Shown: positions 1,699-21,512 of the stretch, piece after piece | How positions within the stretch are numbered: the stretch's first letter is position 1 | How the letters are laid out: each line of letters opens with the position of its first letter | The notes under the pieces: model-generated | The model's database searches: none | What the model was told of the DNA's origin: nothing | What the model saw: only the letters and a program-made list of their open reading frames with translations | Made by a program: the position numbers and the translations under genes | Source of the DNA: Gammaproteobacteria bacterium | Lineage (GTDB): Bacteria; Pseudomonadota; Gammaproteobacteria; JACCYU01 | NCBI GenBank assembly: GCA_013696315.1 | Contig: JACCYU010000078.1 | Location: 1 to 55,678, forward strand | Length of the DNA: 55,678 nucleotides | Direction: 5' to 3'

Positions 1699-4596
1699 GT
1701 GTCACCGAATTCTACTAATGAACCAGGCGGCTTGCCGGAGTCCCTGCGCGCCGACGTCCAGCGCCACTGGGAGGCGTTTGACGCCCGCGATGCATTGCAG
1801 GATAGGCGACAGGAGATACTGCGCGTGTGGGCCGCCAGCCCGTTCGCCGCGAAGACCTGCTTACAGAACCCGGAACTGCTGTCCAAGCTGTTCGAGTCCG
1901 GACATCTTCAGCGCGCTTACACCCCGGACGAGATGGCCGCGCGGGTTGCGGGCGCGGTCGAGCCCGCTGCTCCCGAAGCCGCGCTGATACGTGCCTTGCG
2001 CGTGCTGCGCCGGCGGGAGTGGCTGCGCATCGCGTGGCGCGATCTGACCGGTGCTGCCAACCTGGATGAAACCTTGCGCGAACTCTCCGCAATGGCCGGG
2101 CACTTTGCCGAGCAGGCGCTCGAACATTGCTATAGCCGCGCCTGCGAGAGATATGGGGTACCGCGCGACCCGCAAGGCGAGGCGCAGCAGCTGGTGGTGC
2201 TGGGCATGGGCAAGCTGGGCGGGGCTGAGCTGAATTTTTCTTCCGACATCGACTTGATCTTCGCGTATCCGGAAGACGGCCAGACCGACGGCCGCCGCGC
2301 GCGGGACAACCGCGAGTTTTTCACTAGGCTGGGGCAGAGATTCATAAAGGTACTGAGCGAATACACGGCCGAAGGCTTCGTATTCCGCGTCGACATGCGG
2401 CTGCGGCCGTTCGGCGACGGGCCGCTCGCGATCAGCTTCGACGCCATGGAGCATTACTATCAGACGCACGGCCGCGAGTGGGAGCGCTATGCCATGATCA
2501 AGGCGCGGGTCGTCGCCGGCGATCGCGCCAAAGGGGACGAATTGCTGCGGCGTCTGCGACCCTTCGTTTTTCGCCGTTATCTGGACTACGGCGCATTCGG
2601 CAGCCTGCGCGACATGAAAGCGCTGATCGACGGCGAAGTCGCCAGGCGCGAATTGATCGACAACATCAAGCTTGGCGCCGGCGGCATCCGCGAGATCGAG
2701 TTCATCGCGCAGGCCTTTCAACTGGTGCGAGGCGGTCGCGACACGGAACTTCAGCAGCGTGAGCTGCGCGCCGTGTTGCCGTGCCTCGCCAGAAAAGGCC
2801 ATCTCCCGCAAGCGGATGTCGATGCTTTGCTGGCCGCGTACGCGTTCCTGCGACGAGTCGAAAACCGCCTGCAGATGGCGAACGATCAGCAGACGCACGC
2901 GCTGCCCGAGAATGACATCGAACGCGCGCGGCTCGCGTTCGCCATGAATTTCGATGACTGGGCGTCATTCGCTGAAACGCTGGATGCGCATCGCCGACGG
3001 GTGCACGAGCGGTTCGAGCGCACCTTCGCCGAACCCGAGTCTGTTGATCCGGAGGTGGGTCATACCGGCAGCAATCGCGCGCTGGTCGAGCTGTCGCAGG
3101 GCCATTCAGACGACGACCGTACGCTAGCTCTGCTGCGCAAGGCCGGGTTCGACGATCCTTCGACCGTGGTGCCGGCGATCAAGGCCCTTTACACCGGGCA
3201 TGCTTATCAGGCGCAGGATGAAACCAGCCGCGAGCGCCTCAACCGGCTGATGCCCTTGCTACTGGCGGAGGTCGCACGGCAGCCCGATCCTGCCCGGACG
3301 TTGTCGCGAATTCTGCCGCTCATCGAGGCCATCGCGCGGCGCTCGGTTTATCTCGCGTTGCTCGCCGAACATCGCGAGGCGCTCGCGCAGCTCGTAAAAT
3401 TGAGCGCCGCGAGTAAATGGATTGCCGAATATCTGTCCCATCACCCGATTCTGCTGGACGAATTGCTCAACCCCCGCGATCTTTACGCGCCGCCCGACCG
3501 GGCCGGTCTCGCGGCGCGGCTTGGCGATGAGTTTGCCCAAATCGACCCGTTCGATATGGAGGCGCAGATGGAGCGTTTGCGGCAGTTCAAGCAGGTCAAC
3601 GTGCTGCGCGTGGCGGCGGCGGATGTGATGGAAGCGCTGCCCCTGATGCGGATCAGCGATCAACTGACCTGGATCGCGGAGGTGATTCTGGAGCACGTGC
3701 TGAATATCGCCTGGCAGCAGATGACGGCGCGTTACGGCAAGCCCGGCTGCGTAATCGACGGCGAGCAATACCGGCCGGGATTCGCGATTATCGCGTACGG
3801 CAAGCTGGGCGGTATCGAGCTTGGCTACAGTTCTGATCTGGATCTGGTTTATCTGCACGATAGCGCCGGCGAGCAGCAATGCACCGACGGCGAAAAATCG
3901 ATCGATAACGCCACGTTTTTCGTGCGTCTGGCCCAGCGAATCGTGCATGCGCTGACGGCATTTACCCCCGCCGGTCAGCTCTACGAAGTGGACATGCGCC
4001 TGCGCCCCAGTGGTGCGGCGGGGATTCTGGTCAGCGGCGTGCAGTCGTTCGAACTCTATCAGCGCGAAAAGGCCTGGACCTGGGAGCAGCAGGCGTTGGT
4101 GAGAGCGCGGGCGGTGGCAGGCAGCGGGGGAATAGCGTCGCAGTTTCAGCGTATCCGCCACGAGGTGCTGGCGCGTAAAAAAGAAATTCCGCGGCTGCGC
4201 CGCGAGGTGCGTGAGATGCGTGAGCGCATGTGGCGCGAACTGGGCAGTCACGACTATACGCGCTTCGATTTGAAAAAAGACGCCGGCGGTATCGCGGACA
4301 TCGAGTTTATGGTGCAATACCAGGTGCTGGCGCACGCGCACGATCACGCCCGTTTAAGCGAATTCACGGATAATATTCGCATCCTGGACGGCCTCGCCGC
4401 GAGCGGCTTGTTAACGGCCGAGGACGCAGGTTTTCTGCAGGATGCTTATCGCGGTTACCGCGATTCGGTCCACGCGCTGAGCTTGCAAGGCGAGTCCGCC
4501 GCGGTAGTGGATGGCCAAGAATTCGCCGAGGAGCGCGCCGGCGTCCAGCGTTTGTGGCGGGACCTGATGGAAGTGCCCCAACAGAACATACAATGA
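1699..4596 (+). CDS. glnE: bifunctional glutamine synthetase adenylyltransferase/adenylyl-removing enzyme
   Basis: 965 aa with a GTG start. It has two nucleotidyltransferase halves with the paired signatures LGMGKLGGAELNFSSDIDLIF and AYGKLGGIELGYSSDLDLVY. Confidence 0.95.
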   Translation: MSPNSTNEPGGLPESLRADVQRHWEAFDARDALQDRRQEILRVWAASPFAAKTCLQNPELLSKLFESGHLQRAYTPDEMAARVAGAVEPAAPEAALIRALRVLRRREWLRIAWRDLTGAANLDETLRELSAMAGHFAEQALEHCYSRACERYGVPRDPQGEAQQLVVLGMGKLGGAELNFSSDIDLIFAYPEDGQTDGRRARDNREFFTRLGQRFIKVLSEYTAEGFVFRVDMRLRPFGDGPLAISFDAMEHYYQTHGREWERYAMIKARVVAGDRAKGDELLRRLRPFVFRRYLDYGAFGSLRDMKALIDGEVARRELIDNIKLGAGGIREIEFIAQAFQLVRGGRDTELQQRELRAVLPCLARKGHLPQADVDALLAAYAFLRRVENRLQMANDQQTHALPENDIERARLAFAMNFDDWASFAETLDAHRRRVHERFERTFAEPESVDPEVGHTGSNRALVELSQGHSDDDRTLALLRKAGFDDPSTVVPAIKALYTGHAYQAQDETSRERLNRLMPLLLAEVARQPDPARTLSRILPLIEAIARRSVYLALLAEHREALAQLVKLSAASKWIAEYLSHHPILLDELLNPRDLYAPPDRAGLAARLGDEFAQIDPFDMEAQMERLRQFKQVNVLRVAAADVMEALPLMRISDQLTWIAEVILEHVLNIAWQQMTARYGKPGCVIDGEQYRPGFAIIAYGKLGGIELGYSSDLDLVYLHDSAGEQQCTDGEKSIDNATFFVRLAQRIVHALTAFTPAGQLYEVDMRLRPSGAAGILVSGVQSFELYQREKAWTWEQQALVRARAVAGSGGIASQFQRIRHEVLARKKEIPRLRREVREMRERMWRELGSHDYTRFDLKKDAGGIADIEFMVQYQVLAHAHDHARLSEFTDNIRILDGLAASGLLTAEDAGFLQDAYRGYRDSVHALSLQGESAAVVDGQEFAEERAGVQRLWRDLMEVPQQNIQ

Positions 4597-6036: not shown

Positions 6037-7326
6037 ATGGTGACAGGCTTATCCACGCAAGTTGGCTGGCAGTCGCGGGCGCAGGCTCCCGTTGACGTTA
6101 CGGCCGCAGGCGTCGTTTTTCTCTTCCCCGTGCTGGCCGTAACGGCGCCCCATGGCGCCACCGGCACCTTCGGGGTCCTGTTCGCCTTGGGGCTAGTGTT
6201 TGGCTGGCAGGGTTGGAGGCAATTGTATCGCTGGGAAAAGCAGGTGCTGACCGGCTTCCTGGCTTACGCCGCTACCGTGGGTTTGAGCATGTTGATCGCG
6301 AGCGAACACTTGGCCGATGCTTTCGACGGTTACAGCAAGCATCTGCGATTCGTGGCATTTGTGCCGATCTATTTGATGACGCGGCGCTTCGGTCTCGATC
6401 TGTCGCGTCCGCTGATCACCGGCATCGTGGCGGGTCTGTTCGTCATGTGCGCGGTCGTCGTGAATCAACGTTATGCGTTAGGCATCGAGCGGCCCGGCGG
6501 CAGTCGCGATCCGGTGCAGTTCGCCGACGTGCTGATGCTCTGCACCGTACTGGCGGGGCTGGCGATGGTCACCCTGCGCGCGCGCGCCTGGCAGAATATA
6601 TTGGGTGCGGTCGCAATCGGCGCCGGCCTGTATGCCAGCTACCTTTCGTTGACGCGCAACGCGTGGCTGCTGGTGCCGATCGTGTTCATTCTGATGCTGG
6701 CCCATGAGCGCCGGCATATGACGCGGTTACGCTCGTTACTCCTGGCCGGTAGTTTCGTGGTGCTGTGTGTGCTCTGCTTACACCCGCGTTCGCTCGTCTT
6801 CGAGGGTTTCCAGTCGGGGTACCAGGACATCGAGCTGTATATGGAGTCCCCGGGCAAATTCAGTTCGTGGGGTCTGCGGCTCAATATGTGGCGCAACGCC
6901 CTGATCATCGGTAGCGATGAGCCGTGGTTCGGTACCGGCTTGGGAGACTATGACGAAGCCGCGGGCGAACTGCTGGCAAGCGGCACGTCCTATTCGCAAG
7001 ATCCAATGCTCCTGGAGCAGGCGCACAACGCCTTTATTCACACGTTTGCCGAGAGTGGTGTTTTCGCCTTGTTAGCCTTCACCGCCGGTCTGTTGGTGAC
7101 GCCGCTGCTGGCGTTCGCCCGTCACTGGGGCACCCGCCGGGAGCACGGCAGCAGCTTTGCCGTCCTTGGCGGGATGACAGTGACGCTCGCCTTCGCCATC
7201 TTCGGTATCGGCCACGCGTGGATGGGCAGTAACAATTTCATCAGTATCTATCTCCTATTCATGCTGGTGTTTCTATCCAGCCTGGCGGTCGCCGAGCATC
7301 GGGCGGCAGCGGATCGGCGGGGATGA
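6037..7326 (+). CDS. O-antigen ligase family membrane protein (Wzy_C/WaaL-like)
   Basis: 429 aa, polytopic. It has a periplasmic loop with the ligase-type motif HNAFIHTFAESGVFALLAF. It sits in an LPS gene cluster. Confidence 0.8.
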   Translation: MVTGLSTQVGWQSRAQAPVDVTAAGVVFLFPVLAVTAPHGATGTFGVLFALGLVFGWQGWRQLYRWEKQVLTGFLAYAATVGLSMLIASEHLADAFDGYSKHLRFVAFVPIYLMTRRFGLDLSRPLITGIVAGLFVMCAVVVNQRYALGIERPGGSRDPVQFADVLMLCTVLAGLAMVTLRARAWQNILGAVAIGAGLYASYLSLTRNAWLLVPIVFILMLAHERRHMTRLRSLLLAGSFVVLCVLCLHPRSLVFEGFQSGYQDIELYMESPGKFSSWGLRLNMWRNALIIGSDEPWFGTGLGDYDEAAGELLASGTSYSQDPMLLEQAHNAFIHTFAESGVFALLAFTAGLLVTPLLAFARHWGTRREHGSSFAVLGGMTVTLAFAIFGIGHAWMGSNNFISIYLLFMLVFLSSLAVAEHRAAADRRG

Positions 7327-7859
7327 TGCATCCGGAGGGCGCCGTCCTGGACCTCGGCTGCGGCGACAACAAGTATCCGGGCAGCGTCGGTGTCGATCAC
7401 TATCCTTTCGACGGCGTGGATCTGGTTGCGAACCTGGACCACACACCCTGGCCGCTGGCTGCTGATGGCTACGACCACATCATCGTGAGCCACCTGATCG
7501 AGCACGTGACAGACATTCCGGCTTTCATGAACGAGGTGCATCGCGTTGGCCGACACGGGGCGCTGGTGGAGGTCACGACGCCGCATTTCTCCTCCCATGA
7601 TTCCTACCAGGACCCGACGCATCGCTGGCATCTGGGCACGCTGTGGCCCCAGATATTCTGCCAGGGTTATCTGCGCAGCCGGGTCGCGCCCTTCAGTATG
7701 GTCTCGGTGGATGTCAGCTTCGGAAAGAACCTGCGCTACTGGTTTCCAAAGCTCGCAATCAGGGCCAAGGGCCTGGGGTGGTGGGAAAAGAATTATGCTT
7801 TCGTTTATCCCGGGCGCGACATGATCACCCGCTTACGAGTGGAAAAGCCCGCGGTTTGA
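7323..7859 (+). CDS. class I SAM-dependent methyltransferase
   Basis: 178 aa with motif I VLDLGCGDN and a Methyltransf_11-like core. ATGA start/stop overlap with the ligase gene. Confidence 0.75.
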   Translation: MMHPEGAVLDLGCGDNKYPGSVGVDHYPFDGVDLVANLDHTPWPLAADGYDHIIVSHLIEHVTDIPAFMNEVHRVGRHGALVEVTTPHFSSHDSYQDPTHRWHLGTLWPQIFCQGYLRSRVAPFSMVSVDVSFGKNLRYWFPKLAIRAKGLGWWEKNYAFVYPGRDMITRLRVEKPAV

Positions 7860-9163: not shown

Positions 9164-10216
9164 TTATGACGTGCCAAACGTCCGCTTGAAACTGCTAAGG
9201 AACCGCTGAATTTTTATGATCGCCGCGGCTGCCCGGTCGAGGTCAATTGCGCTCATGTCGTGGTCATCAGCGTGCGGCGACGGCGAGAAGGCGAGCCGTC
9301 TGGATGCGTCATTTATCGTTTGCCAGCGCAGCGCGGTCGAGGATTGGCGGCGCGGATAGAACGCCGCGGTCGGGCGGTTCAGCGCGCCGGCGATGTGCAA
9401 TGGCCCGGTGCTGCCGCTGATGAACAGATCGGCAAACGCGATACGGCGCGCGTAATTCACTAGCCCCTCGCGCGAATCGAAAACCACGTGCGCACAGCCG
9501 GCAATCGATGCGGCCAGCTCCCGCGCCCGCGAAAGTTCGCCGGGCCCGGCGCACAACACGAAGACATTGCCATCGTTAGAGGCAAGCCTGGTTGCCAGCG
9601 TGGCGTATTGCGGGATTGAAAGATTCCTGGCCGAGCCGCCGCTGCCGGCATGGATGAAAACCAGCCGCGCATGGTAATCGAAGCCATGTTGCGCCAGTAG
9701 ATCCGCGCGCGCCGCGGCGATCTGCTCGCTGCCGAACTGCAAATAAGGCGGCGCCGCGGGCGGCTTAGGAAGGCGATTCCAAAGGTTCAGCAAATGCTTG
9801 ACCAGATCGACATTGTAGGCGAACTCAGGCTTCTCCGAGCGCGATCGTCGTTGGGTCAAGCGTTGATTGTAGAAAATCTGGGCAAGCTTGGTCGCAGGCG
9901 CGATGCGCACCGGAATCCCCGCGCGCCAGGCGGCCAGGCCGACACGAGAAGTGGAAAATAAAGTTACGATCGCGTCGTAGGCGTTATCGCTGAGCGTCCG
10001 CGTCAGCGCGGAGCCCCGCGGGTCTTCTGCCGGATCGACCACCACGCGGTCAATCCACGGACAGTTTACCGCCAGTGGGCGGGTATACTCCGGCACCAGC
10101 GCGTCGATCCGGCAATCCGGCAGGCTGGTTTTTAACAGCGCAAACGCCGGCCAGGCGAGCATGAAATCGCCGAGCTTGTCGTTGCGAACCACCAGCACCT
10201 TGTGGGTCGGCATCAA
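9164..10216 (-). CDS. glycosyltransferase family 9 (LPS heptosyltransferase family)
   Basis: 350 aa. N-terminus KVLVVRNDKLGDFMLAWPAFALLK, and C-terminal GSTGPLHIAGAL typical of GT9. Confidence 0.8.
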   Translation of the reverse strand: MMPTHKVLVVRNDKLGDFMLAWPAFALLKTSLPDCRIDALVPEYTRPLAVNCPWIDRVVVDPAEDPRGSALTRTLSDNAYDAIVTLFSTSRVGLAAWRAGIPVRIAPATKLAQIFYNQRLTQRRSRSEKPEFAYNVDLVKHLLNLWNRLPKPPAAPPYLQFGSEQIAAARADLLAQHGFDYHARLVFIHAGSGGSARNLSIPQYATLATRLASNDGNVFVLCAGPGELSRARELAASIAGCAHVVFDSREGLVNYARRIAFADLFISGSTGPLHIAGALNRPTAAFYPRRQSSTALRWQTINDASRRLAFSPSPHADDHDMSAIDLDRAAAAIIKIQRFLSSFKRTFGTS

Positions 10217-10346
10217 ACCAGAGTAGCTGATGGAGTATGCGAATCCTAGAGATGTGTCCGTCGCCGGACCAGGGAGGCCTGGAGTTTTCTGCCGGCGCCA
10301 CGGCCGGGGACCTGGCGTGCCACGAACACGGTGTTACCTTAGATTC

Positions 10347-10589
10347 ATGGCCGAATATCGCTTTACTGAATATTTTAACGTACAAGTCCTCCGCAAGCGG
10401 CCATTCCTCAAAAAGGAGTGGTGCATTTACGTTCTGGAAAATGCGGTGCGCGCTGAGCCCCAAGAGCACAATCGATTTCGCTTCTGGGCGGCAGTGCCCG
10501 CGCTTGGCGGCCGATGCTTGAGGGTTATCACGCTTGGGGATAAGGTACCTATTCATAACGCTTTCCCGGTCCGAAAGTTCAAGCCATGA
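10347..10589 (+). CDS. DUF4258-like small protein (putative toxin of a DUF4258/DUF2283 pair)
   Basis: Internal ATG 10347 of track ORF 10230..10589: MAEYRFTEYFNVQVLRKRPFLKKEWC...GGRCLRVITLGDKVPIHNAFPVRKFKP. The L-R-V-(I/V)-T and IHNAF ending match my memory of this family. 4-nt ATGA overlap with the next gene. Confidence 0.6.
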   Translation: MAEYRFTEYFNVQVLRKRPFLKKEWCIYVLENAVRAEPQEHNRFRFWAAVPALGGRCLRVITLGDKVPIHNAFPVRKFKP

Positions 10590-10804
10590 AACTCAATTAC
10601 TATCCTGAAACGGATTCGCTCTATATCGATCTCTCCGAACAGCTCAGCTCAGAGAGCCGGGAGATCTCGGAGGGTGTCGTGCTTGATTATGACGCCCGGG
10701 GAAACCTCGTTGGTATCGACATCGACAATGCCAGCACCAAGGTTGAGCTGAAAGAACTCATCCTCAGCAAGCTACCGGGAAAGGTCGAAATGGTGGCCGC
10801 CTGA
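10586..10804 (+). CDS. DUF2283 domain protein (putative antitoxin partner)
   Basis: 72 aa. MKLNYYPETDSLYIDLSE...VLDYDARGNLVGIDIDNAS is the canonical DUF2283 pattern. Confidence 0.8.
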   Translation: MKLNYYPETDSLYIDLSEQLSSESREISEGVVLDYDARGNLVGIDIDNASTKVELKELILSKLPGKVEMVAA

Positions 10805-11063
10805 CATCGCGCTCTACGGCCGGCTGTCGGTGAGGTCGACGTCATGATCTATGGCGCCGCGCGCTGGCATCGGCATATCGCGAGTCAGATAACGGCAAGT
10901 CGGCGGCGTGAAGGCGTAATTATGTCGCGGGCTGTCTGTAGCCGAGATCGGCCGCTAAAGCTATTCAACATGTAGTTGCAGAGCATGTGGAGGATGCCCA
11001 TCCGTACCAGGTTCGACAAGTGCGAGCGGTGGTTCTGAAATACCACTTAGCGAGTGAACTGTA

Positions 11064-11276
11064 ATGTATCGATACGAGACAATTATCTAATGGAGCGAGG
11101 AAGATCAGTCGTTTATTGCGGAGGCGCCAGAGTTGCCGGGTTGCATGGCGCATGGAGCGTCTCAAGAAGCTGCTTTGGCGAATGCGAAAGATGCAATTCA
11201 ATTGTGGCTGGACACCGCGAAGGAATTCGGCGATCCAATACCAGAACCTAAAGGCCGGCGCCTGATCTATGCTTAA
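11064..11276 (+). pseudogene. hicB: HicB-family antitoxin with an in-frame TAA at codon 9
   Basis: My own translation gives MYRYETII*WSEEDQSFIAEAPELPGCMAHGASQEAALANAKDAIQLWLDTAKEFGDPIPEPKGRRLIYA*. The TAA at 11088-11090 sits where the family has Tyr (IIYWSEEDQ). Confidence 0.7.
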
Positions 11277-11348
11277 AGCACTGCCGGGTGCGAGGACTCG
11301 TGCATCAGTATAGATTCGATATTACGAAAGCATCACCGACGACAGGCT

Positions 11349-11555
11349 ATGCATATCCTGACTATTTCTTCCAAGTTCCAGGTCGTTATCCGTAAAGAAG
11401 TTCGCGAATCTCTCAAGCTCCCTCCCGGCCAGAAGGTTCAAATCGTCCTGTTGGAAAACCGGACCGAGCTTATTCCCGTGCGCCCGCTCACGGAGATGAA
11501 GGGCTTTCTCAAAGGCATCGATACCGACGTTCCGAGAGAGCAAGACAGGACGTGA
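11349..11555 (+). CDS. vapB: AbrB/MazE/SpoVT-type antitoxin (VapB-like)
   Basis: 68 aa. MHILTISSKFQVVIRKEVRESLKLPPGQKVQIV is a typical SpoVT-AbrB swapped-hairpin N-terminus. It lies directly upstream of a PIN-like ORF. Confidence 0.8.
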   Translation: MHILTISSKFQVVIRKEVRESLKLPPGQKVQIVLLENRTELIPVRPLTEMKGFLKGIDTDVPREQDRT

Positions 11556-11921
11556 ATGTTGTCGTCGGGTTGGCTTGAGTATTTCGCATCTGGGCCTAAT
11601 GCCGATTTTCTTCGCAACCGCCATAAAGCCGACGGAGGAACTTCTTGTCCCGACTGCAAGCCTCTACGAAATTTTTTTAAACGTATTCTTCAGCAGCGCG
11701 GTGAAGGCGACGCCTTGCAAGCGGTTGCGCTGATGCAGCAAGGCATTGTTGTCGTGCCCACGGCTTCCCTGGCCTTAACCACCGCGCGGCTGAGCTGTGG
11801 GGAGTTGGCCTTGGCTCTCGTCTGGCTGATCATAGGTCAGCCTAAAATTGCAGGTGAAGAATTTATTCTGCTCGTGACCGGAATGATTGATATGACCGTT
11901 GGCTTAGACGACACTCTATAG
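11552..11921 (+). pseudogene. vapC: PIN-domain VapC-like toxin, apparently decayed
   Basis: SGWLEYFASGPNAD and KRILQQRGEGDALQAVALMQQG match a VapC subfamily. The GTG(11552) frame stops after 8 codons. The ATG(11556) frame lacks the N-terminal catalytic Asp. Between T-runs 11606-11609 and 11672-11678 the family-like sequence FFATAIKPTEELLVPTASLYEIF is in the +1 frame. The C-terminal third is unlike the family. Confidence 0.6.
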
Positions 11922-12183
11922 CTCAACTTGTCGTCTATATTTGGTAGGAGGTTTTGTGGCCTAAACAGCAACGGAAAGCTCGCATTCCAAAATTATGCGC
12001 CTATATGCGTGTTTCTTGGTATTGGTGTGTCGTAGATAAGGCACCTTTGCAGTAGAAGATGTACCACATCGAGCTAATTTCAACGCCTGTATTGCGGAAA
12101 TGCGGGATCGAGAACGTACCGTCGATAAAAATAATAAATGCGGCCAGTAGCGGAGAGGGGCTTGAAGGCGGTGGAGAACCGTA

Positions 12184-13692
12184 GTGGGTTTTGCGGAGTT
12201 GCTACATGAAGTCGACCGGTTAGCGGCCTGCGGTCAGTTGCGGGCAGCGGCCGAAGTCTTGGAGGAGTCAATCGCCCAATCGGGCCGCGATCCGCGTCTT
12301 CTGCGGGCACTTGGCCGGTTGTATCTGCTTGAGCATCGCGCCCACAATGCTGTCAGTATCCTACAAGAAGCCCTCGAACTTCAGCAGCGTGGTCGAATTC
12401 ACGCGTTTCAGGTCGGGCACGAGGAAGTGTCTGCTTTGGACATGGATTACTTAGCAGAACAGGATAGCGCCGCAAGTGGGGTGCGGCTTCAGGAACACGT
12501 CAGCCAGCAGATCCTCGATCAGTCGTCAGATCAGCCCGTAAGTCGGGGCTTGATCGAAATCCAACGCGGTCCGGACACGCTAAGTGTTTCCAATTATCCT
12601 CCGCAACCTGCCTCGCGTTTCGACAGCACCCCCGGTGACCACCAGAGCGATTCACCGAACGACACTTCGTGCCTGCAACAAGACCTCGATGTGCCTTTCG
12701 AGAATGAGCGTCAAATGCGGATCGCGGAGACAAAGATGGCCGCCCTCAGCCTTGATGCATTCAAGGAGGCACTTTACCCGCAAGGCGAGCTCGACTTTGA
12801 GGTTGATGACGAACAAGTCCTGCCCGCATTCGACGATGTTGAATTTCAAGAGTTTCCTGAAGAGCTTGCGTCTCAGAGCGCGTTCTACTACCCGTCCGAC
12901 CAGACCGACGAAGTTGATCCCTACCTAGTCGACATTGAAGAGCTGATCGACGACATCTCAGAAGACGCTGATGAGGAACCTTTACCCCGGGGCGTCACGC
13001 GAGAGCAACGCGCGTTACAAGTCGCCGCAGAATTTCTTGAGCGAGTCGGCTGGGATCGAGAGCACCTACGTCCTTTGCAAGACTTCTTCGTTCGATACGG
13101 CTGGTCCATGGCGCGCGTCGCGCTGGAGAGAGAAATTGAAAAAGGACTCGATCCAGAAGAGTTCCCCATTGCCCTCAGACTGAGAGAAATCTGGGCGGAA
13201 AACGAGCGCTACTGGACGGCATTCTTCTATCCGCCTCAAGCCAAAGATTGCTACCGAGTCATGTCATGGTCGATGGCGATTCTGATCGTTCGCTCCGTCC
13301 CCGGTATTCCGTTCGAGGAGGAACTTGAGCTGTTTGTCGAGAACGAGTTCGATACCTGGTACAGCAGCGACAGTCTTCGTCGTCAGTTCTGCGCGTTCAT
13401 CAAGTATCTCTATTTCCGCGTCGCAGGCGGCAATTGGACGCTGCACCCTTTCTGTCCGGTCAACTTCCCAGAACCTCGTTCAGAAGATTTTGATGATGCG
13501 TCTGATCTAGGATTGACGGATTTGGTGGGTGCCGAAAGACGAAGCATCTTGATGCGATTGGGGGTGCGAATCCATCAATCGAGTACTGATCTAGATTCTC
13601 GTTACACTGGGCATCCGCACATATTGGCGGCAATAGCGCAGGGCGACTACACCGGTCGTGACCATATTACACGGAGCCTAGAAGATGAATGA
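12184..13692 (+). CDS. hypothetical protein: helical/TPR-like N-terminus, extremely acidic middle, unrecognised C-terminal domain
   Basis: 502-aa ORF with a GTG start, preceded by 262 bp of AT-rich non-coding DNA. Residues 201-266 have 26 D/E and no K/R. Its stop overlaps the start of the SNF2 gene by 8 nt (ATGAATGA). Confidence 0.7.
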   Translation: MGFAELLHEVDRLAACGQLRAAAEVLEESIAQSGRDPRLLRALGRLYLLEHRAHNAVSILQEALELQQRGRIHAFQVGHEEVSALDMDYLAEQDSAASGVRLQEHVSQQILDQSSDQPVSRGLIEIQRGPDTLSVSNYPPQPASRFDSTPGDHQSDSPNDTSCLQQDLDVPFENERQMRIAETKMAALSLDAFKEALYPQGELDFEVDDEQVLPAFDDVEFQEFPEELASQSAFYYPSDQTDEVDPYLVDIEELIDDISEDADEEPLPRGVTREQRALQVAAEFLERVGWDREHLRPLQDFFVRYGWSMARVALEREIEKGLDPEEFPIALRLREIWAENERYWTAFFYPPQAKDCYRVMSWSMAILIVRSVPGIPFEEELELFVENEFDTWYSSDSLRRQFCAFIKYLYFRVAGGNWTLHPFCPVNFPEPRSEDFDDASDLGLTDLVGAERRSILMRLGVRIHQSSTDLDSRYTGHPHILAAIAQGDYTGRDHITRSLEDE

Positions 13693-16504
13693 CCTACCAC
13701 TACCAGTATCCGGTTGCTGGGTGCGTGATCGAGAGGAGGGTCGCGCAGACCGACTTGGTATAGTCCGCATGACCGTTCCGCATGATAACGACCCGAAGGC
13801 CAAGGTCGAGTGGTTGAAACCGGATCGCCGGCAATCAATAGTGCCCGTTTCCCAGCTCAGCTGCGGGTTCGGGCTCCGCATGGAGGTGCTTGAAGCGGGC
13901 GGTGGGACTGGGCGCCAGTCGCTGGGTTACGGAGGGATCATCGGCCTGCGAAAACTGGGCAACCGCGAGCAGGTGCTTGTCGACTTCCCGGAGACAGGCA
14001 AGCGCGCATGGCTGCCATATCAGAACCTACGACAGGTCAAGGGCCCGCGTCACCGGTTCATTACGGGTGATACTGGAGACAAAGACTCTCCTGAGCGATT
14101 CAGGCTGAAGGTGCTGGCTCACGCTCTAGAGATTTGGAACGAGAACACCGGAGCTCTGTCGCACCTCGACATAGACCCGCTGCCCCACCAAATCCACCTC
14201 GTTCATCACATTCTCGCCTCGGGCAATCTCAATTGGCTTATCGCCGACGACGTCGGTCTCGGCAAGACGATCGAAATGGGGATGCTGCTGGCCGCGCTGC
14301 AGCAGCGCGAACTGTTAGGTCGAGTGCTACTCATCACGCCGGCTGGTCTCACTAAGCAATGGAAGGACGAGCTCTACTACAAGTTTGGTTTTGAAGGCTT
14401 TGAAATCTACGGCGAGGACTTTTTCATCAACGAGCCTCGCCAGTGGAAGATGCACGACTTCGTCATCGGCTCCATGGATAAACTCAAGCAGGAGACCGAT
14501 CTAAACAGTCTTCTGCATGCGCCGAATTGGGACCTGGTGATCGTGGATGAGGGCCACCGTCTGAGCCGCAGGCAATATGGCATGCGCTACGACTACTCGG
14601 AGCGATTCCAACTTGCACAGGTACTCCGAAGCAGAACCCGCTCGATTGTCCTGCTTACTGCCACGCCGCATCAAGGTATGCAGGACAAATTTATCGCGCT
14701 ACTCGAATTGCTTCGTCCAGAACGCAAAGAGGAGTTACAAACGCTCACGCTTAACCCTGAGATCATTAGCGAGATGGTCTACCGAAATTACAAAGCCGAT
14801 GTGACCGATGCCGTGGGCAACTTCGTCTTTAAGGGCAAGCAGACTCGCACAATTCGAGTGCATCCCAGCGAACAGGCTGTGACGTTCGACCGAGCCCTGC
14901 AGAAGTACCTTCGGCGCGGCTATGCGGCAGGCGGAAACACCGGCGGCACGGCCGGGCGCGCAATTGGGTTCGTGATGACCATCTACCGCAAGCTCGCCGC
15001 GTCTAGTTCGGCGGCGATACTCAACGCGCTCCTAAGACGTAGAGAGCGACTGATTAATGCAAGCGGTGGACAAACTGAAGAGCTGCCGATTGACGAACGT
15101 TATGCCGGCGAATGGGAAGAGCAACAAGAAGCTACGGGGCGAGCATTTTTTGAAGGCGAACTTGCGCTATTAGACCAGCTCATTCAGGGCGCCAAGAGCC
15201 TAAAGCAGCATGACAATAAGCTGTGTGGATTCTGCGACCAGATCATCGGCCAGATCTTGGTCAGCAACCCAAAGGAAAGGGTTTTGATCTTCACTGAGTA
15301 TCGCGGCACTCAGGACTATCTTCGGGAAGAACTCGTGGAGCGGTATGGTGAGCAATGCGTGAGGCTCATACACGGCTCGATGGATCACGAGGAGCGGCGA
15401 CAAGCAATCCAGTATTTCGAGGCAGAGGGCCAGTTCCTGATCTCAACGGAGGCGGGCGGCGAAGGAATCAACCTCCAGCGCCGCTGCCACGTGATGGTGA
15501 ACTACGACTTGCCATGGAATCCTATGCGGCTCGTTCAGCGCGTCGGTCGTCTCTACCGATATGGCCAGGAGATGCCCGTCGTTGTGTTCAACCTCCATGT
15601 AACCGGGACGGTGGACGAAGACATCATTGATCTCATGTATCGACGGCTAAACGCGGTCGTGGCCGATCTGGCGACGGTGTCTCGGCACGAATATAACGAG
15701 CGGCTGGCAGAAGACGTCCTCGGCGAGGTGGCGGAACTGCTCGACGTCGGGACCGTATTAGTGGCAGCAACGGAATCGGGCATTCAGCGGACTCAGCAAC
15801 GTATCGATGAAGCCCTTAAAAAAGCCCGCGGGTCAGCACAGAAGCAGCGCGAGCTATTTGAGCATGCCGCGCGGTACGATGAGGAAGAGTTGGCTGAGAA
15901 TTTACAGATCACTGATCAACACGTCCAAGCGTTTGTGTTCGGCATGTTTAGGCTTATAGGCGTGGAGATCATAGAGATGCTCCACAACAACAAAGTGCTC
16001 AAGATTCGCCTGCCGGACGCCATCCGAAACGAGCTCGGCATGAAGGCGGCGCGTATGGACATTACCTTCGACCGCCTGCTGGCGTCGAATCGCGCTAACA
16101 CTACAATGATGGACCTGACTGCACCGTTCATGACCTATCTAGTGCGCGTGGCAAAGTCCTACGACTTCGGGGGACAATGCGCAGTCATTAAGGCGCTTAC
16201 CGGTGAGTCTGTTCTCACGGCATTATTGCGCTGGCAGGACGATCAGGGTCGGCGCATGCGGCAGTCTTTTAGCGTGTTCAGGCTGGACGGACAATCCGTG
16301 GAAACCAACCCTGCCGAGTTTGGCGTCTGGCTGCTGAGTGAAGCCGTGTCAGGCCATGCTGAGGTCACCCGAGAGCGAAACGAGTCCCTGATGAAACTGG
16401 CCGAGCGTGCCGCCAACGAGGCTCTTGCAGCCGCCAGTAATCGGTATTTGCATCCCGAGAATCTTCAGTGGCTGGCAGGCGGTTGGTTAGCTGTATCAGA
16501 ATAA
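13685..16504 (+). CDS. SNF2-family ATPase/helicase with RapA(HepA)-like architecture
   Basis: 939 aa. Motifs seen: LPHQ; Walker A ADDVGLGKT (14255-14269 covers GLGKT); DEGH (14546-14557); LLTATPHQG; FLISTEAGGEGINLQ; NYDLPWNPMRLVQRVGRLYRYGQ. The N-terminal ~120 aa form two Tudor/SH3-like repeats, with LGYGGIIGL...VLVDFPETGKRAWLPYQNLRQV resembling the RapA N-terminus. The C-terminal region contains ITFDR, as RapA does. Confidence 0.88.
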   Translation: MNDLPLPVSGCWVRDREEGRADRLGIVRMTVPHDNDPKAKVEWLKPDRRQSIVPVSQLSCGFGLRMEVLEAGGGTGRQSLGYGGIIGLRKLGNREQVLVDFPETGKRAWLPYQNLRQVKGPRHRFITGDTGDKDSPERFRLKVLAHALEIWNENTGALSHLDIDPLPHQIHLVHHILASGNLNWLIADDVGLGKTIEMGMLLAALQQRELLGRVLLITPAGLTKQWKDELYYKFGFEGFEIYGEDFFINEPRQWKMHDFVIGSMDKLKQETDLNSLLHAPNWDLVIVDEGHRLSRRQYGMRYDYSERFQLAQVLRSRTRSIVLLTATPHQGMQDKFIALLELLRPERKEELQTLTLNPEIISEMVYRNYKADVTDAVGNFVFKGKQTRTIRVHPSEQAVTFDRALQKYLRRGYAAGGNTGGTAGRAIGFVMTIYRKLAASSSAAILNALLRRRERLINASGGQTEELPIDERYAGEWEEQQEATGRAFFEGELALLDQLIQGAKSLKQHDNKLCGFCDQIIGQILVSNPKERVLIFTEYRGTQDYLREELVERYGEQCVRLIHGSMDHEERRQAIQYFEAEGQFLISTEAGGEGINLQRRCHVMVNYDLPWNPMRLVQRVGRLYRYGQEMPVVVFNLHVTGTVDEDIIDLMYRRLNAVVADLATVSRHEYNERLAEDVLGEVAELLDVGTVLVAATESGIQRTQQRIDEALKKARGSAQKQRELFEHAARYDEEELAENLQITDQHVQAFVFGMFRLIGVEIIEMLHNNKVLKIRLPDAIRNELGMKAARMDITFDRLLASNRANTTMMDLTAPFMTYLVRVAKSYDFGGQCAVIKALTGESVLTALLRWQDDQGRRMRQSFSVFRLDGQSVETNPAEFGVWLLSEAVSGHAEVTRERNESLMKLAERAANEALAAASNRYLHPENLQWLAGGWLAVSE

Positions 16505-16780
16505 AGGATGCTGGTTAGAAAGCAGCACGAACGAGAAGACAAAAGGGGACGTCATAGTCATCGTATCGGCGCTGCTCAGTCGCGCTTTGCCCGTCGATAC
16601 GTTTAATGTGCTCTTGGCTGTCCGTCAGCAATAAGCCTCGCCCTCAAACCGTCGGCACAGTGGTAGGTGAGTGCCGGCTGCGTGTTAGGTGGCTTGCAGC
16701 AGACTGAATGGGAGCGTTAAGCTTCTAGCTGATAGCTGGGCCGGTCATCTCAGTCGCGCCTGCCCGCGAGCGCTCCCATT

Positions 16781-16808
16781 CGATCATGCGCGTCCGATCA
16801 TGCGCGTC
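16781..16808. repeat. perfect 14-bp tandem duplication (CGATCATGCGCGTC x2)
   Basis: Read directly: 16781-16794 equals 16795-16808. It lies about 100 bp upstream of hldE. Confidence 0.95.
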
Positions 16809-16902
16809 GCGGCTGCGCTTGAATTACGCGATCGCTTCGTCCAGTGGCCTGAGAACAATCGATCGTATAAGCTGATTCCGCTTAACCGAACCCACTGACT
16901 GC

Positions 16903-18330
16903 ATGCGACTTTCAATTCCGGGTTTCTCTAACGCCCGAGTGCTGGTGGTCGGCGACCTGATGCTTGACCGCTACTGGTATGGCGCGACCTCCCGGATCTC
17001 ACCCGAGGCGCCGGTGCCGGTCATCAATGTCGGCGAGGAGGAAGAGCGTGCGGGCGGCGCGGGCAATGTAGCGCTGAATGTTGCGGCACTGGGCGGCGCC
17101 GTTACCCTGATCGGCTTCACCGGTGACGATCAGGCGGCGACCTCGCTCAAGGCGCTGCTGGAACGCGACGGCGTGCGCTGTCATTTCATCACTGTCGCAC
17201 AGCGCACGACCAGCACCAAGTTGCGCGTGATCAGCCGCCATCAGCAGTTGATCCGCCTGGATTTCGAGGATGGTTTCGCGGATGTCGATCAGGCAGCGCT
17301 TGCAGGCTCGTACACGCGCAACCTGGCGACGCATGATCTCGTGATCCTGTCCGATTACGGTAAAGGCGCCTTACGCGACGTTAAATCGCTCATTGAACAT
17401 GCTCGGCGTGCCGGCAAGCCGGTGTTGGTCGATCCGAAAGGTGCGGATTTCGGACGCTATCGCGGCGCCACAGCCATCACTCCGAATCAGGCCGAATTCG
17501 AGGCGGTGACGGGAATTTGCGCGAACGACGTTGAGATGACCGCGAAAGGGCAGCGTCTGCTCGCCGATCTCGAGCTGGAGGCGCTGCTCGTTACTCGCAG
17601 CGAAAAAGGCATGCTTTTGTTGCGTGTCGGCTCGCCGCCGCTGGCATTTCCCACTCATGCCAGCGATGTATTCGACGTCACGGGCGCCGGCGATACCGTG
17701 ATCGGCGTGCTGGGCGCAGCGCTCGCGGTCGGGACGTCTATGCCGGAGGCGGTCGCGCTTGCGAACCTGGCGGCTGGTGTGGTGGTGCGCAAGCTCGGCA
17801 CGGCCACCGCGTCTTTGCGCGAACTTCAGACCGCGATGCTGAAGCATGAGCCCCTGCAACGCGGCCTGGTGACCGAAGTAGCGCTGGTGGCGTTGCTGGA
17901 GAAGGCGCGCGCCAGCGGCGAGAGAGTGGTGATGACCAACGGGTGTTTCGATATCCTGCACGCGGGTCACGTGGCTTATCTCTCGCAGGCCGCGCAGCGG
18001 GGTGATCGGCTGGTGGTGGCGGTTAACGATGACGACTCGGTGCGACGCCTGAAGGGGTCGAATCGGCCGGTCAATCCGCTGATGCAGCGCATGGCGGTGC
18101 TGGCCGGGCTGGAAAGCGTAGACTGGGTGGTCTCGTTTGCCGAGGATACGCCGCGGCGGCTGATCGAGGCGTTGAGTCCCGACACTCTAGTCAAGGGCGG
18201 CGATTATCGACCGGACGACGTGGAGGGCGGCGACTGGGTGCGCGCGCACGGCGGCGAGGTCATCGTATTGGATTACATCGACGGGTGTTCCACCAGCGCG
18301 ATCATCGCCGCCATACGCAAAGGCATCTGA
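16903..18330 (+). CDS. hldE: bifunctional D-beta-D-heptose 7-phosphate kinase / heptose 1-phosphate adenylyltransferase
   Basis: 475 aa. Ribokinase-like N-domain (DVTGAGDTV) plus cytidylyltransferase C-domain ([12 protein letters not shown]). Confidence 0.95.
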
Positions 18331-19326: not shown

Positions 19327-20385
19327 GTGACAGGCCCGGAGCGCGTGCTGGTGGTGGGTCCAGCGTGGGTCGGCGACATGATCATGGCGCAGACGCTGTT
19401 CAAGCTCTTGCGCCGCCAGCACCCGGAAATCGAGATCGACGTGCTGGCGCCGGCCTGGTCGGCGCCGCTGCTGGCGCGCATGCCGGAGGTGCGCGAAGCG
19501 GTGCAGGTGCCGCTGGGACACGGTGAGTTACGCTTGCGCACGCGTTATCGACTGGGCCGCGAACTCGCGCGGCGCGGATATCACCAGGCGCTGATCCTGC
19601 CGCGTTCTTTCAAATCGGCCATTATTCCCTGGTTTGCGAGGGTGCCACGCCGCACGGGGTATCTGGGTGAGAGCCGTTACGGCGTGATCAATGATCGGCG
19701 GCCGCTGGACCCGGCGGCCATGCCGCTAGTGGTGCAGCGTTACGCGGGTCTGGGGCTTGCGCCGGGCGCGTGCGCGCCGCCGCTGGAAGAGCTGCCGCGG
19801 CCGGCCCTGACAGTGGACGAGGTCAATGGCTTGCGGCTGGTCGCGCAACTGGGTCTTTCCGCGACCGGGCCGGTGGTCGGGTTAATGCCCGGCGCGGAGT
19901 ACGGGCCCGCCAAGCAATGGCCACCGGATTACTATGCCGCCCTGGCGCGGCGTCTGGCGGAAAATGGCGTGCAAACCTGGGTGCTCGGGTCGCAAAAGGA
20001 TTTCGAGCTTGGCGAGTCTATCGTTATGCAATCCAGACTGGGTTTAACTGCGGGTAGCGTGAATCTGTGCGGCAAAACACAAATGCACGATGCCATCGAT
20101 CTGCTCGCGCGCGTGCAGGTTGCGGTGACCAACGATTCCGGTCTCATGCACGTGGCCGCCGCGGTGGGCGTGCCGCTGGTGACGCTCTATGGTTCATCCA
20201 CGCCCGCTTACACGCCGCCGTTGTCCGCACGCGCGACGATTATGTATCTGAACGTCGCGTGCAGTCCCTGTTTCGACCGCACCTGCCGCTTCGGGCATTA
20301 CAATTGTCTGCGCGATATCGCCGTAGCCGACGTATTCAACGCAACCTGCCGACAGCTCGTTTCGAGCTCAGACGGTCGCCATTGA
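19327..20385 (+). CDS. waaF: ADP-heptose:LPS heptosyltransferase II
   Basis: 352 aa with a GTG start. VLVVGPAWVGDMIMAQTLFKLL...LILPRSFKSAIIPWFARVPRRTGYLGE is WaaF-like. Confidence 0.88.
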   Translation: MTGPERVLVVGPAWVGDMIMAQTLFKLLRRQHPEIEIDVLAPAWSAPLLARMPEVREAVQVPLGHGELRLRTRYRLGRELARRGYHQALILPRSFKSAIIPWFARVPRRTGYLGESRYGVINDRRPLDPAAMPLVVQRYAGLGLAPGACAPPLEELPRPALTVDEVNGLRLVAQLGLSATGPVVGLMPGAEYGPAKQWPPDYYAALARRLAENGVQTWVLGSQKDFELGESIVMQSRLGLTAGSVNLCGKTQMHDAIDLLARVQVAVTNDSGLMHVAAAVGVPLVTLYGSSTPAYTPPLSARATIMYLNVACSPCFDRTCRFGHYNCLRDIAVADVFNATCRQLVSSSDGRH

Positions 20386-20426
20386 TCGTGGCAAGGCGCA
20401 AGGCGCTGATATTGCGTATCGGAAAC

Positions 20427-21512
20427 ATGATAAACAAACTTGCTACAAACAGCCCCGCGGTTGCAAACAGACACTTCGTGTTGAGCCGGCCGGACAGCAT
20501 TGGCGATGTGGTGCTGACCCTGCCCATGGCTGGCGTGCTGAAAGCGGCGTTCCCCGGTTGCCGCGTTTCGCTGCTGGGACGCAACTATACCCGACCGCTG
20601 GCGCTGGCTTGCGAACACTTGGACGGCGTGTACGCATGGGACGAGATCGAGTCCACGCCGCATGTCGAGCAGGTCGCGCAGTTCAGGGCAATGGGCGCGG
20701 ACGCGATTTTCCACGTGCTGCCAAAACCAGAGATCGCGCGGCTCGCCAAAGCTGCTCAAATCCCGCTGCGCATCGCGACCTCGCGACGCATGTCACACTG
20801 GCTGACCTGCAACCGGCTGGTGTATCTGCACCGGCATCATTCGCCGCTGCATGAAGCCCAGTTAAATCTGAAACTGTTGCGCGGCGTGGGTTTGCGCGAT
20901 ACGTACAGCCTCGACGAGATGCGCGACTGCTTCGGGCTGAACATCGTGCCCCAGCTGCGGCCGGCGCTGGCCGCCGCGATCGATCCTGAGCGTTTCAATC
21001 TGATCGTGCACCCCAAGTCCGGCGGCACCTCGCGCGAGTGGCCGATCGAGCATTTCGCGGCGCTGATCGGGAACCTGCGCGCGGCGCGCTTCAATGTTTT
21101 CGTCACCGGCAGCCACAGGGAGGCGGAACAGGTCCGATCCAGCCTGCCCATGCACCTGCCGCACGTGCACGACGTTATGGGGCGGCTCATGCTGACCGAC
21201 CTGATCGCGCTGATGCACCGGGTCGATGGGCTGCTTGCGGCCAGTACGGGGCCGCTGCATATGGCCGCCGCCATCGGCCTGCACGTGGTTGGTCTCTACG
21301 CGCCGGTGGGCTCCAAGCACGCGGGTCGCTGGGGGCCGATCGGCCCCAGAACCAGCGTTTTTCAGCTCCCGGAGAAATGCTCGCTATGTCGCCGATCCAA
21401 TGTTTGCGCGTGCATGCGGCGCATCACGTCCGCCGAGGTCAGCGCTTATCTGTGCGGCCTCGCGCGACCGGCCACGACCGATGGCGTCGCAACCACGCCG
21501 GCCCGGCGGTAA
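20427..21512 (+). CDS. glycosyltransferase family 9 (heptosyltransferase family)
   Basis: Internal ATG 20427 of track ORF 20067..21512. The upstream part overlaps waaF out of frame. FVLSRPDSIGDVVLTLPMAGVLK and STGPLHMAAAIGL are GT9 motifs. Confidence 0.8.
   Translation: MINKLATNSPAVANRHFVLSRPDSIGDVVLTLPMAGVLKAAFPGCRVSLLGRNYTRPLALACEHLDGVYAWDEIESTPHVEQVAQFRAMGADAIFHVLPKPEIARLAKAAQIPLRIATSRRMSHWLTCNRLVYLHRHHSPLHEAQLNLKLLRGVGLRDTYSLDEMRDCFGLNIVPQLRPALAAAIDPERFNLIVHPKSGGTSREWPIEHFAALIGNLRAARFNVFVTGSHREAEQVRSSLPMHLPHVHDVMGRLMLTDLIALMHRVDGLLAASTGPLHMAAAIGLHVVGLYAPVGSKHAGRWGPIGPRTSVFQLPEKCSLCRRSNVCACMRRITSAEVSAYLCGLARPATTDGVATTPARR

Follow-up and report, generated by a model that had tools for sequence, protein, structure and literature searches.

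A RapA-like SNF2 ATPase and its upstream partner as a candidate two-gene defence cassette in a gammaproteobacterial islet

What is a SNF2 ATPase that resembles RapA, the RNA polymerase (RNAP)-associated motor, doing in a low-GC islet of a gammaproteobacterial genome? The gene in question (13685..16504, + strand) lies on contig JACCYU010000078.1 of assembly GCA_013696315.1, whose entire 55,678 nt (55.7 kb) were analyzed and are referred to here as the window, and its open reading frame (ORF) translates to 939 amino acids (aa). A preliminary description of this DNA had proposed that the protein copies the domain plan of RapA rather than that of a typical defence helicase and that its likely target is RNAP rather than naked DNA. 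Our analysis points elsewhere. The ATPase gene and the gene directly upstream (12184..13692, +) are best read, at a probability of about 0.6, as a horizontally acquired two-gene cassette of the defence-island kind, composed of a RapA-like helicase and a coupled partner, and not as a second RapA. The evidence comes from the anatomy of the two proteins, the integrity of the motor motifs, the obligate pairing of the genes, their mobility, their defence-island context and a kinship of the helicase that is closer to methylase-linked defence helicases than to RapA.

The peptides quoted for the ATPase in the preliminary description are all present in the translation, with GCWVRDREEGRADRLGIVRMTV...VEWLKPDRRQSIVPVSQL at residues 10-58, LGYGGIIGLRKLGNREQVLVDFPETGKRAWLPYQNLRQV at 80-118, LPHQIHLVHHIL...WLIADDVGLGKTIEMGMLL at 166-202 and ITFDR at 793-797, and the E. 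coli RapA strings to which they were compared (LGLGTVVAV..., LIPHQLNIAHDV... and ITITFDRE, in a protein of 968 aa) are correct for rapA b0059. Pfam recognizes only the generic SNF2 lobes in the 939-aa protein (SNF2-rel_dom, residues 168-353, E 5.5e-17; Helicase_C, residues 521-627, E 1.8e-22). Lobe 1 (residues 160-360; 14162..14764, +) has an intact Walker A motif, GLGKT, with K194 and an intact DEGH box with D288 and E289, and lobe 2 (residues 521-660; 15245..15664, +) carries motif VI as QRVGRLYRYGQ. With both lobes present and the Walker A, DExH and arginine-finger motifs intact, the protein belongs to the Swi2/Snf2 (SF2) ATPases. In an alignment of 120 homologues K194, D288, E289, R619, R622 and R625 are invariant, and from these motifs the motor is predicted to be active. 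An AlphaFold2 model built from the same homologues (mean predicted local distance difference test score, pLDDT, 75.9; 72-89 in the N-terminal blocks) gives the order of parts as two N-terminal five-stranded barrels, linker helices, the motor (two lobes and a helical insertion) and two alpha+beta domains, the first at about residues 733-825 and the last at about 832-935.

Both N-terminal barrels are predicted from the model together with family conservation. The first is SH3/Tudor-like and covers residues 8-60 (13706..13864, +), with strands at 12-15, 24-31, 38-45, 50-54 and 58-60 and with W12, V13, G25, V27, V41 and W43 kept family-wide. The second covers residues 64-118 (13874..14038, +), with strands at 67-70, 82-91, 94-101, 106-111 and 115-117; it is the more conserved of the two and is marked by invariant G81, R89, Q96, G105, W109, P111 and K119. 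The N-terminal 120 residues together have an isoelectric point (pI) of 9.6. In a sister metagenome-assembled genome (MAG; GCA_051001175.1, JBPCNN010000057.1, 4303-6972) the SNF2 protein is annotated as 889 aa from a start 50 codons downstream, a call by which barrel 1 would be lost. We favor the 939-aa start because the six barrel 1 residues are conserved throughout the family and because this start overlaps the partner gene.

Beyond the motor, residues 733-825 (15881..16159, +), which hold ITFDR, align with RapA residues of about 700-797 and, from this alignment and predicted secondary structure, are equivalent to the degenerate restriction endonuclease (REase)-like domain of RapA and BrxHII. 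The invariant columns of the family alignment contain neither a conserved lysine nor a (D/E)xK motif, so this domain is probably not catalytic, consistent with the 'inactive REase' described for such helicases (PMC12839542). The final domain (residues 832-935; 16178..16489, +) is modeled by AlphaFold2 with strands at 832-835, 842-851, 857-867 and 872-874, helices at 877-882 and 896-917 and a fifth strand at 923-935, and its invariant residues are L848, W850, Q851, G855, R857, R859, W882, P924, W929 and W934. The model agrees with what has been published for the C-terminal domain of RapA and BrxHII, a five-stranded sheet in which two long helices are inserted before strand 5 (PMC12839542).

How far does the likeness to RapA extend? 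A phmmer search of PDB sequences gives RapA as the best match (E 4e-33), in two stretches that pair SNF2 residues 134-350 with RapA 121-338 and 524-830 with RapA 497-797. The second stretch spans the TFDR motif, which bears out the earlier observation that a C-terminal ITFDR is common to the two proteins. Profile-profile comparison aligns columns 146-852 of a 50-member family profile with RapA 131-816 (probability 99.9%, E 2.6e-32), using a RapA profile that is shallow, as its search gave only Enterobacterales orthologues of at least 83% identity. When the AlphaFold2 model is compared with PDB by Foldseek, RapA comes out on top (6BOG, E 3.7e-33, 1114 alignment columns) and N-terminally truncated RapA second (E 2.6e-30, 988 columns), the full-length protein gaining 126 columns; the best SNF2 protein other than RapA, ISW1, follows at 1.9e-18, about 15 orders of magnitude behind RapA. 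Similarity to RapA beyond the generic SNF2 core is therefore significant by phmmer, profile-profile comparison and Foldseek, and the model supports a RapA-like domain plan along the whole length.

The protein nevertheless scores well below the thresholds that define RapA itself. Against the RapA equivalog NCBIfam NF003426 it reaches 200.6 bits versus a cut-off of 576 (best stretch 117-354 against profile positions 107-342). The Pfam family RapA_C (PF12137), a model of the C-terminal 360 residues of RapA, gives 12.9 bits over residues 732-833 (profile positions 93-196), below the gathering threshold of 26.8; for E. coli RapA the score is 515.7 bits, over positions 1-360. Partial RapA_C matches are present in 10 of 50 family members at E<=1, the best at 3.3e-6. 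A second rapA was not found in the 55.7-kb window, where the only RapA-sized ORF (1699-4596, 965 aa) was considered as a candidate and is glnE.

The N-terminal segments deserve separate treatment. That they are tandem Tudor-like folds is upheld by fold and position, as the predicted barrels (strands within 12-60 and 67-117) match the positions of the RapA Tudor domains (Pfam, RapA 3-53 and 55-118), but their sequence match to those Tudors is within chance. In particular, the proposed resemblance of the second segment to the RapA N terminus amounts to a BLAST score of 16.5 bits at E 7.9. Residues 1-162 alone find no PDB match at E<=10 (phmmer), neither Tudor_1_RapA (PF18339) nor Tudor_RapA (PF18337) matches the window protein at E<=10, and in a scan of 50 members both Tudor models lie outside the 25 most-matched of 48 Pfam families. 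The family profile scores truncated RapA at 147.4 bits and full-length RapA at 146.8. With isolated barrels, the best hhalign pairing joins barrel 2 to RapA Tudor 1 (P 0.006, probability 6%). The LGYGGIIGL / LGLGTVVAV match was rejected as a sign of barrel-Tudor homology, being within chance and pairing barrel 2 with RapA Tudor 1, out of register. RapA's own two Tudors also fail to detect each other (hhalign, P 0.2), so the missing barrel signal is compatible with common ancestry. The presence of tandem N-terminal barrels, not one, is the sole real RapA-like distinction of the protein and is seen only at the level of the predicted fold.

Is this plan foreign to defence helicases? It is not, and the opposition between a RapA plan and a typical defence helicase does not hold, since the same plan has already been published for BrxHII, BREX-related, DISARM class I and ARMADA helicases. 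BrxHII of type-3 BREX and BREX-related helicases consist of Tudor, Swi2/Snf2, inactive REase and C-terminal alpha+beta parts, a plan that parallels RapA save for the number of Tudor domains, a tandem pair in RapA and one in BrxHII (PMC12839542). For DISARM class I and ARMADA, likewise, the SNF2 component has been called a 'BrxHII/RapA-like helicase', and it normally occurs with a PglX-like methylase (PMC12458937). By predicted secondary structure and model alignments the window protein has the BrxHII architecture, with two barrels instead of one. Its best PADLOC matches are BrxHI|BrxHII (300 bits, residues 149-840), HmaA (283) and DrmD (275), and its best NCBIfam model is DrmD (NF038317), with 312.4 bits over residues 167-825 compared with 200.6 for RapA, albeit below the DrmD equivalog cut-off of 610 bits. 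The DISARM context of DrmA, DrmB and a methylase is absent from the window islet and is not conserved across 30 loci.

A scan of reference genomes places the kinship more closely. For the nearest outgroup helicases, from Binatia, Acidobacteriota and Planctomycetota, the preceding gene in every case encodes an Eco57I/PglX-like methylase (about 1100 aa). These methylase-linked helicases score 480-570 bits with the family hidden Markov model (HMM) versus about 150 for RapA, and with the RapA HMM they score 143-178 bits, above the 103-135 of the SNF2 family itself. On the basis of these profile scores the family would be a branch of the defence-helicase radiation (the BrxHII / DrmD / ArmA / HmaA group) and would be no closer to RapA than its methylase-linked cousins are. 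Outgroup tblastn matches start only at query residues 78-138, so that barrel 1, at least, is not shared at the sequence level. In the outgroup loci (L045-L054) an N6 methyltransferase of about 1100 aa is followed directly by a RapA-like SNF2 protein of about 940-1000 aa, for example at 2622-8718 of L050; in L049 a UvrD/AAA_30 helicase of 1231 aa comes after the pair. These methylase-SNF2 pairs resemble ARMADA/DISARM-type modules.

Whether RNAP is the likely target can be judged at the surface with which RapA is known to dock. In RapA the RNAP beta flap-tip helix is held by L216, V217, L220, L229, I540 and I541, a hydrophobic patch on lobes 1A/2A, and by a salt bridge from R226; a cryo-electron microscopy study showed that RapA activation depends on this contact as well as on the beta' zinc-binding domain (PMC8501970). 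We compared 17 RapA orthologues with the 120 family sequences plus 10 divergent members. All seven docking residues are invariant in the RapA orthologues and fall in confidently aligned core segments. In the family L216 is replaced by Q/K, V217 by E/D, L220 by N/Y/H, L229 by I, I540 by H and I541 by Q/A/P, which leaves five of the six hydrophobic contacts polar or charged, and R226 is mostly E/D. The methylase-linked helicases have the same kind of replacements, and the control columns for Walker A, DExH and the arginine finger are identical in all groups (100% conserved). Because the contact residues are replaced while the catalytic controls are conserved, RapA's known RNAP docking surface appears to be absent from the family, and the sequence comparison does not support RNAP as the likely target, though RNAP might be bound in another mode.

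The partner encoded by the upstream gene has 502 aa and a pI of 4.46, and homologous genes stand upstream of SNF2 homologues in unrelated contigs. In an AlphaFold2 model from 67 sequences it begins with two tetratricopeptide repeats (TPR; residues 1-76; 12184..12411, +). The helices at 3-76 have a pLDDT of 94-98, Foldseek superimposes them on TPR modules at a root-mean-square deviation of about 1 A over 62-66 residues, the partner family profile matches consensus TPR chains at positions 21-86, and TPR_19 is matched in 34 of the 67 members. Residues 113-250 (12520..12933, +) form a predicted disordered, strongly acidic linker, with a pLDDT of 30-44 over most of its length and a net charge of down to -13 per 40 residues; among homologues it is poorly aligned and varies in length. 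A conserved all-alpha, tryptophan-rich (W-rich) domain follows (residues 270-415; 12991..13428, +; pLDDT 85-97), in which W337, S361, W362, P376 and W392 are invariant and W290, W307 and W344 near-invariant over the 67 sequences. Its fold has no match in PDB or BFVD (Foldseek), in Pfam (67 members) or in a PDB-sequence profile search. Only the TPR part of the partner matches anything in PDB, BFVD or Pfam, and beyond TPR no PADLOC, PHROG, NCBIfam or Pfam-specific family was found for it. An exhaustive profile search for the partner family gave 538 clusters (50% identity), of which 390 have E<=1e-10.

The two genes are tightly joined. Read directly, their junction (13673..13692, +) consists of GGAG, 8 nt and then ATGAATGA, with an 8-nt overlap of the SNF2 start and the partner stop, a sequence arrangement consistent with translational coupling. 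In a sample of 39 full-length loci from species-representative genomes the partner lies directly upstream on the same strand in 30 (HMM). In the other nine (from Dehalococcoidia, Chloroflexota, Arenicellales and others) the ORF that abuts the SNF2 gene upstream belongs to a family matching the C-terminal domain of the partner (hhalign probability 93.8%, E 1.8e-7). A partner is thus present in all 39 sampled loci and the pairing is obligate. No third gene is conserved, as none recurs in more than 4 of the 30 loci. On Deinococcus plasmids the upstream partner is 1315 aa long, with the W-rich domain at its extreme C terminus. The copy on Deinococcus aquaticus plasmid pDATS01 (4051-7998) has no Pfam or PADLOC match; only its last ~120 residues match the C-terminal domain, the N-terminal ~1150 residues being an alternative 'front end'. 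Because the W-rich domain is present both in this 1315-aa partner and in the diverged upstream genes, it is the constant element of the partner, and the N-terminal part varies.

Several lines of evidence indicate that the cassette is mobile. The SNF2 family is carried by Aeromonas, Pseudomonas, Acinetobacter, Psychrobacter, Dyella, Desulfobacteraceae, Cytophagales, Latescibacteria, Dehalococcoidia and Caldilineaceae, its carriers as a whole span Gamma-, Alpha- and Deltaproteobacteria, Bacteroidota, Latescibacteria, Chloroflexota and Deinococcota, and the cassette is found on Nitrosococcus and Deinococcus plasmids. On metagenome contig k141_601077 (1738-6271) a Tn7-like module (TnsA-like, Mu-transposase C, TniB, TniQ) stands immediately upstream of the pair, and BrxR, a type I restriction-modification (R-M) system and an AlbA_2/HATPase gene come after it, making a compact mobile defence cargo array. 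Homologues of either gene were absent from 50,697 phage genomes. The pattern of patchy phyla, plasmids, Tn7-like cargo and defence islands, together with the low-GC islet and the 200.6-bit equivalog score, rules out a single vertically inherited rapA orthologue. Of the idea that the window holds an islet-borne RapA paralogue with a dedicated partner, the islet and the partner stand, whereas the paralogy gives way to the closer kinship with methylase-linked defence helicases.

Defence genes recur around the pair. It lies beside type III R-M genes in some loci, methylases adjoin it in a few, and on Nitrosococcus plasmid pNHAL01 it sits between Dsr1 and restriction/HNH genes. Seven of 10 sampled large neighbours are defence genes (Tmn, Mokosh MkoA, BREX PglZ-BrxL, Eleos LeoBC, a DrmD-like helicase and PbeA), in a sampling that was uncontrolled and does not amount to an enrichment test. 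In one locus, of a Desulfobacteraceae MAG (PIVS01000022.1, 138-8793), the pair directly follows type-1 BREX PglZ and BrxL on the same strand, which may be an accessory association or just island packing.

The best reading of these data is that the pair is a candidate defence module that lacks a recognizable nuclease. As to how it might work, the partner would be a sensor or regulator that has a variable N terminus and docks on the helicase through its constant W-rich domain, and its acidic linker may contact the basic barrels. The N-terminal domain (NTD) of RapA is an autoinhibitory element that gates the ATPase (PMC8501970), and the barrels could gate the motor in the same manner and offer a possible site for engagement by the partner. 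An infection cue relayed by the partner would then release the motor, which would translocate on the double-stranded DNA of the invader and strip or block protein-DNA complexes. Since neither protein has a recognizable nuclease, the effect would be non-nucleolytic or dependent on host nucleases. The defence function, the partner-helicase contact, the gating by the barrels and the DNA substrate are all steps that we infer.

A number of points weigh against this defence reading. It would be unusual for a defence system that stands alone to have, as here, no recognizable nuclease or other effector domain in either protein, and the step at which killing or blocking would occur lacks an explanation. 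That the partner touches the helicase is deduced from synteny only, a role of the pair in phage resistance is a prediction, and assignment to the BrxHII/DrmD radiation follows profile scores rather than a rooted phylogeny. Nor do catalogues single the pair out: NCBI names the helicase merely 'helicase-related protein', and PADLOC gives no match to the partner in the window, Thiorhodococcus, Nitrosococcus, Deinococcus or metagenome versions. In some genomes the pair stands alone between housekeeping genes, and the neighbour sampling carries the limit given above.

Other explanations account for parts of the evidence. The helicase could be an islet-borne RapA paralogue that docks on RNAP and acts on host or phage transcription complexes, the partner serving as specificity factor. 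Several bacterial factors (Mfd-RID, CarD, NusG) contact RNAP through Tudor/KOW-like barrels, and the tandem barrels at the RapA Tudor positions, as opposed to one in BrxHII-type helicases, would suit such a role, as would the rank of RapA as closest solved fold over about the whole length and the sharing of the 'TFDR' region and part of RapA_C. We regard this as unlikely, because five of the six flap-tip hydrophobics and R226 are replaced just as in methylase-linked defence helicases, the barrels have no sequence similarity to the RapA Tudors, the RapA profile scores the family below ordinary defence helicases, the window protein falls short of the RapA equivalog cut-off, and the C-terminal similarity is common to BrxHII and DrmD and so is not RapA-specific. 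A related proposal, which we hold very doubtful, keeps the immune role and takes the barrels as true counterparts of the RNAP-binding NTD of RapA, with the partner sensing infection and the motor evicting host or phage RNAP. If it were true, such an RNAP-evicting cassette would be a nuclease-free, transcription-targeted defence whose docking mode is unlike the flap-tip contact of RapA.

A toxin-antitoxin-like or abortive module, in which an unrestrained SNF2 motor is toxic and the acidic partner is an antitoxin that disappears or is titrated when infection occurs or the element is lost, would explain the combination of an acidic upstream partner (pI 4.46) and its disordered linker with a basic helicase N terminus. 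It would also agree with the antitoxin-first gene order and overlapping start and stop, with the toxin-antitoxin remnants that fill the islet, with the plasmid-borne cassettes of some carriers and with the known autoinhibition by the RapA NTD. A partner of at least 500 aa (and up to 1315) with a conserved folded domain and a variable N terminus looks, however, more like a sensor than a labile antitoxin, toxicity of the helicase is without support, and chromosomes stably retain the pair between housekeeping genes, so this explanation is improbable. Finally, the pair might not serve defence at all but be an accessory motor for DNA repair, recombination or transcription, or might serve the mobile elements that carry it; the lack of a nuclease or effector domain, the loci without defence neighbours and the occurrence as Tn7-like cargo and on plasmids could all be taken that way. 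The sporadic, patchy distribution across phyla, the frequency with which R-M, BREX, Mokosh, Eleos, Tmn and Dsr1 genes surround the pair, the closest relatives in methylase-helicase defence modules and a fast-evolving partner whose variable N terminus is typical of conflict systems make such a role, in our view, quite improbable.

In the window the cassette occupies the right part of a 6.7-kb low-GC islet (10217..16902) inserted in a lipopolysaccharide (LPS)-core cluster, with a GT9 heptosyltransferase gene (9164-10216, minus strand) on its left and hldE (16903-18330) on its right. The islet has a G+C content of 0.51-0.58 versus 0.61-0.68 in the flanks, and the cluster around it contains glnE, ilvE, an O-antigen-ligase-like gene, glycosyltransferases, hldE, hldD, waaF, a Kdo kinase gene, waaA and tolC. 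The sister MAG, which is 99% identical, has the same islet at the same site; exact-match look-ups of the window hldE and SNF2 proteins, as a way to an islet-free relative, gave no record. Flanking direct repeats, tRNA genes and an integrase were sought at the islet and none was found, and promoter and terminator scans gave counts no better than shuffled sequence. To the left of the pair lie toxin-antitoxin-type remnants (10586..11921, +; Pfam/PHROG-type matches), namely a DUF2283 gene (10586-10804, +), a 47-aa HicB-like antitoxin fragment that looks degraded (11133-11276, +), a MazE/AbrB-like antitoxin (11349-11555, +) and a 121-aa ORF that may be degraded (11556-11921, +; a phrog_9972 match and no Pfam family). 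Close to the right-hand end of the islet, the spacer that separates hldE from the SNF2 stop has a 14-nt unit perfectly duplicated in tandem (CGATCATGCGCGTC x2, 16781-16808). Elsewhere in the LPS-core cluster, a Wzy_C (O-antigen ligase-like) gene (6037-7326) overlaps the small S-adenosylmethionine (SAM)-methyltransferase-like gene that comes next (7323-7859), and neither has an NCBIfam equivalog. A third GT9 heptosyltransferase ORF (20067-21512, 481 aa, GTG start) overlaps waaF by about 320 nt; its product in the sister MAG has 361 aa, which puts the true start probably near 20430.

What is new here is not the RapA-like architecture of defence helicases, which is already published, but a RapA-like helicase with two predicted barrels joined to a TPR/acidic/W-rich partner, with neither methylase nor nuclease, a combination that we did not find described. 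In PADLOC-DB v2.0.0 the helicase matches generic SNF2 defence models and the partner matches none, so that the pair does not correspond to a catalogued system; NCBIfam has no specific model for it, and literature searches turned up no description of a two-gene system of SNF2 + TPR type. BREX type 3, DISARM class I, ARMADA and Hma-type systems all have a RapA-like Swi2/Snf2 helicase among their core components, and the cassette may be the simplest setting for such a motor, with one helicase and one non-enzymatic-looking partner. If it proves to protect against phage, it would provide a minimal and convenient model in which to study the switching-on of a RapA-like motor and its action on invading DNA, and would add a partner domain without a known fold to the defence-associated domains. 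For annotation the lesson is that a RapA-like architecture does not by itself mean that a protein acts on RNAP.

Set beside known systems, the helicase is like RapA/HepA (PDB 6BOG, 4S20, 8T0L) in its order of parts, its core motifs and its length (939 versus 968 aa), in having two predicted N-terminal barrels at equivalent positions and in a post-core region that is homologous to about residue 830 and includes TFDR. It is unlike RapA in that identity is merely 25-32% in the alignable parts, and while E. coli rapA lies between rluA and polB with no partner, the family here is mobile and islet-borne with an obligate upstream partner. With BrxHII and Hma-type helicases it shares the plan, a length of about 940 aa and a defence-island location. 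A single Tudor is described there, however, where two barrels are predicted here, and the partners there are a BrxC/DUF499 ATPase, a PglX-type methylase and PglZ (BREX-3), an operon that is not conserved beside this family, whose only conserved neighbour is the TPR/W-rich partner. The likeness to DrmD of DISARM class I and ArmA of ARMADA lies in DrmD being the top NCBIfam model and in the methylase pairing of the nearest outgroups. The cassette differs from both in that no DrmA, DrmB, YprA-like or methylase gene is conserved with it, their place being taken by a non-enzymatic-looking TPR protein.

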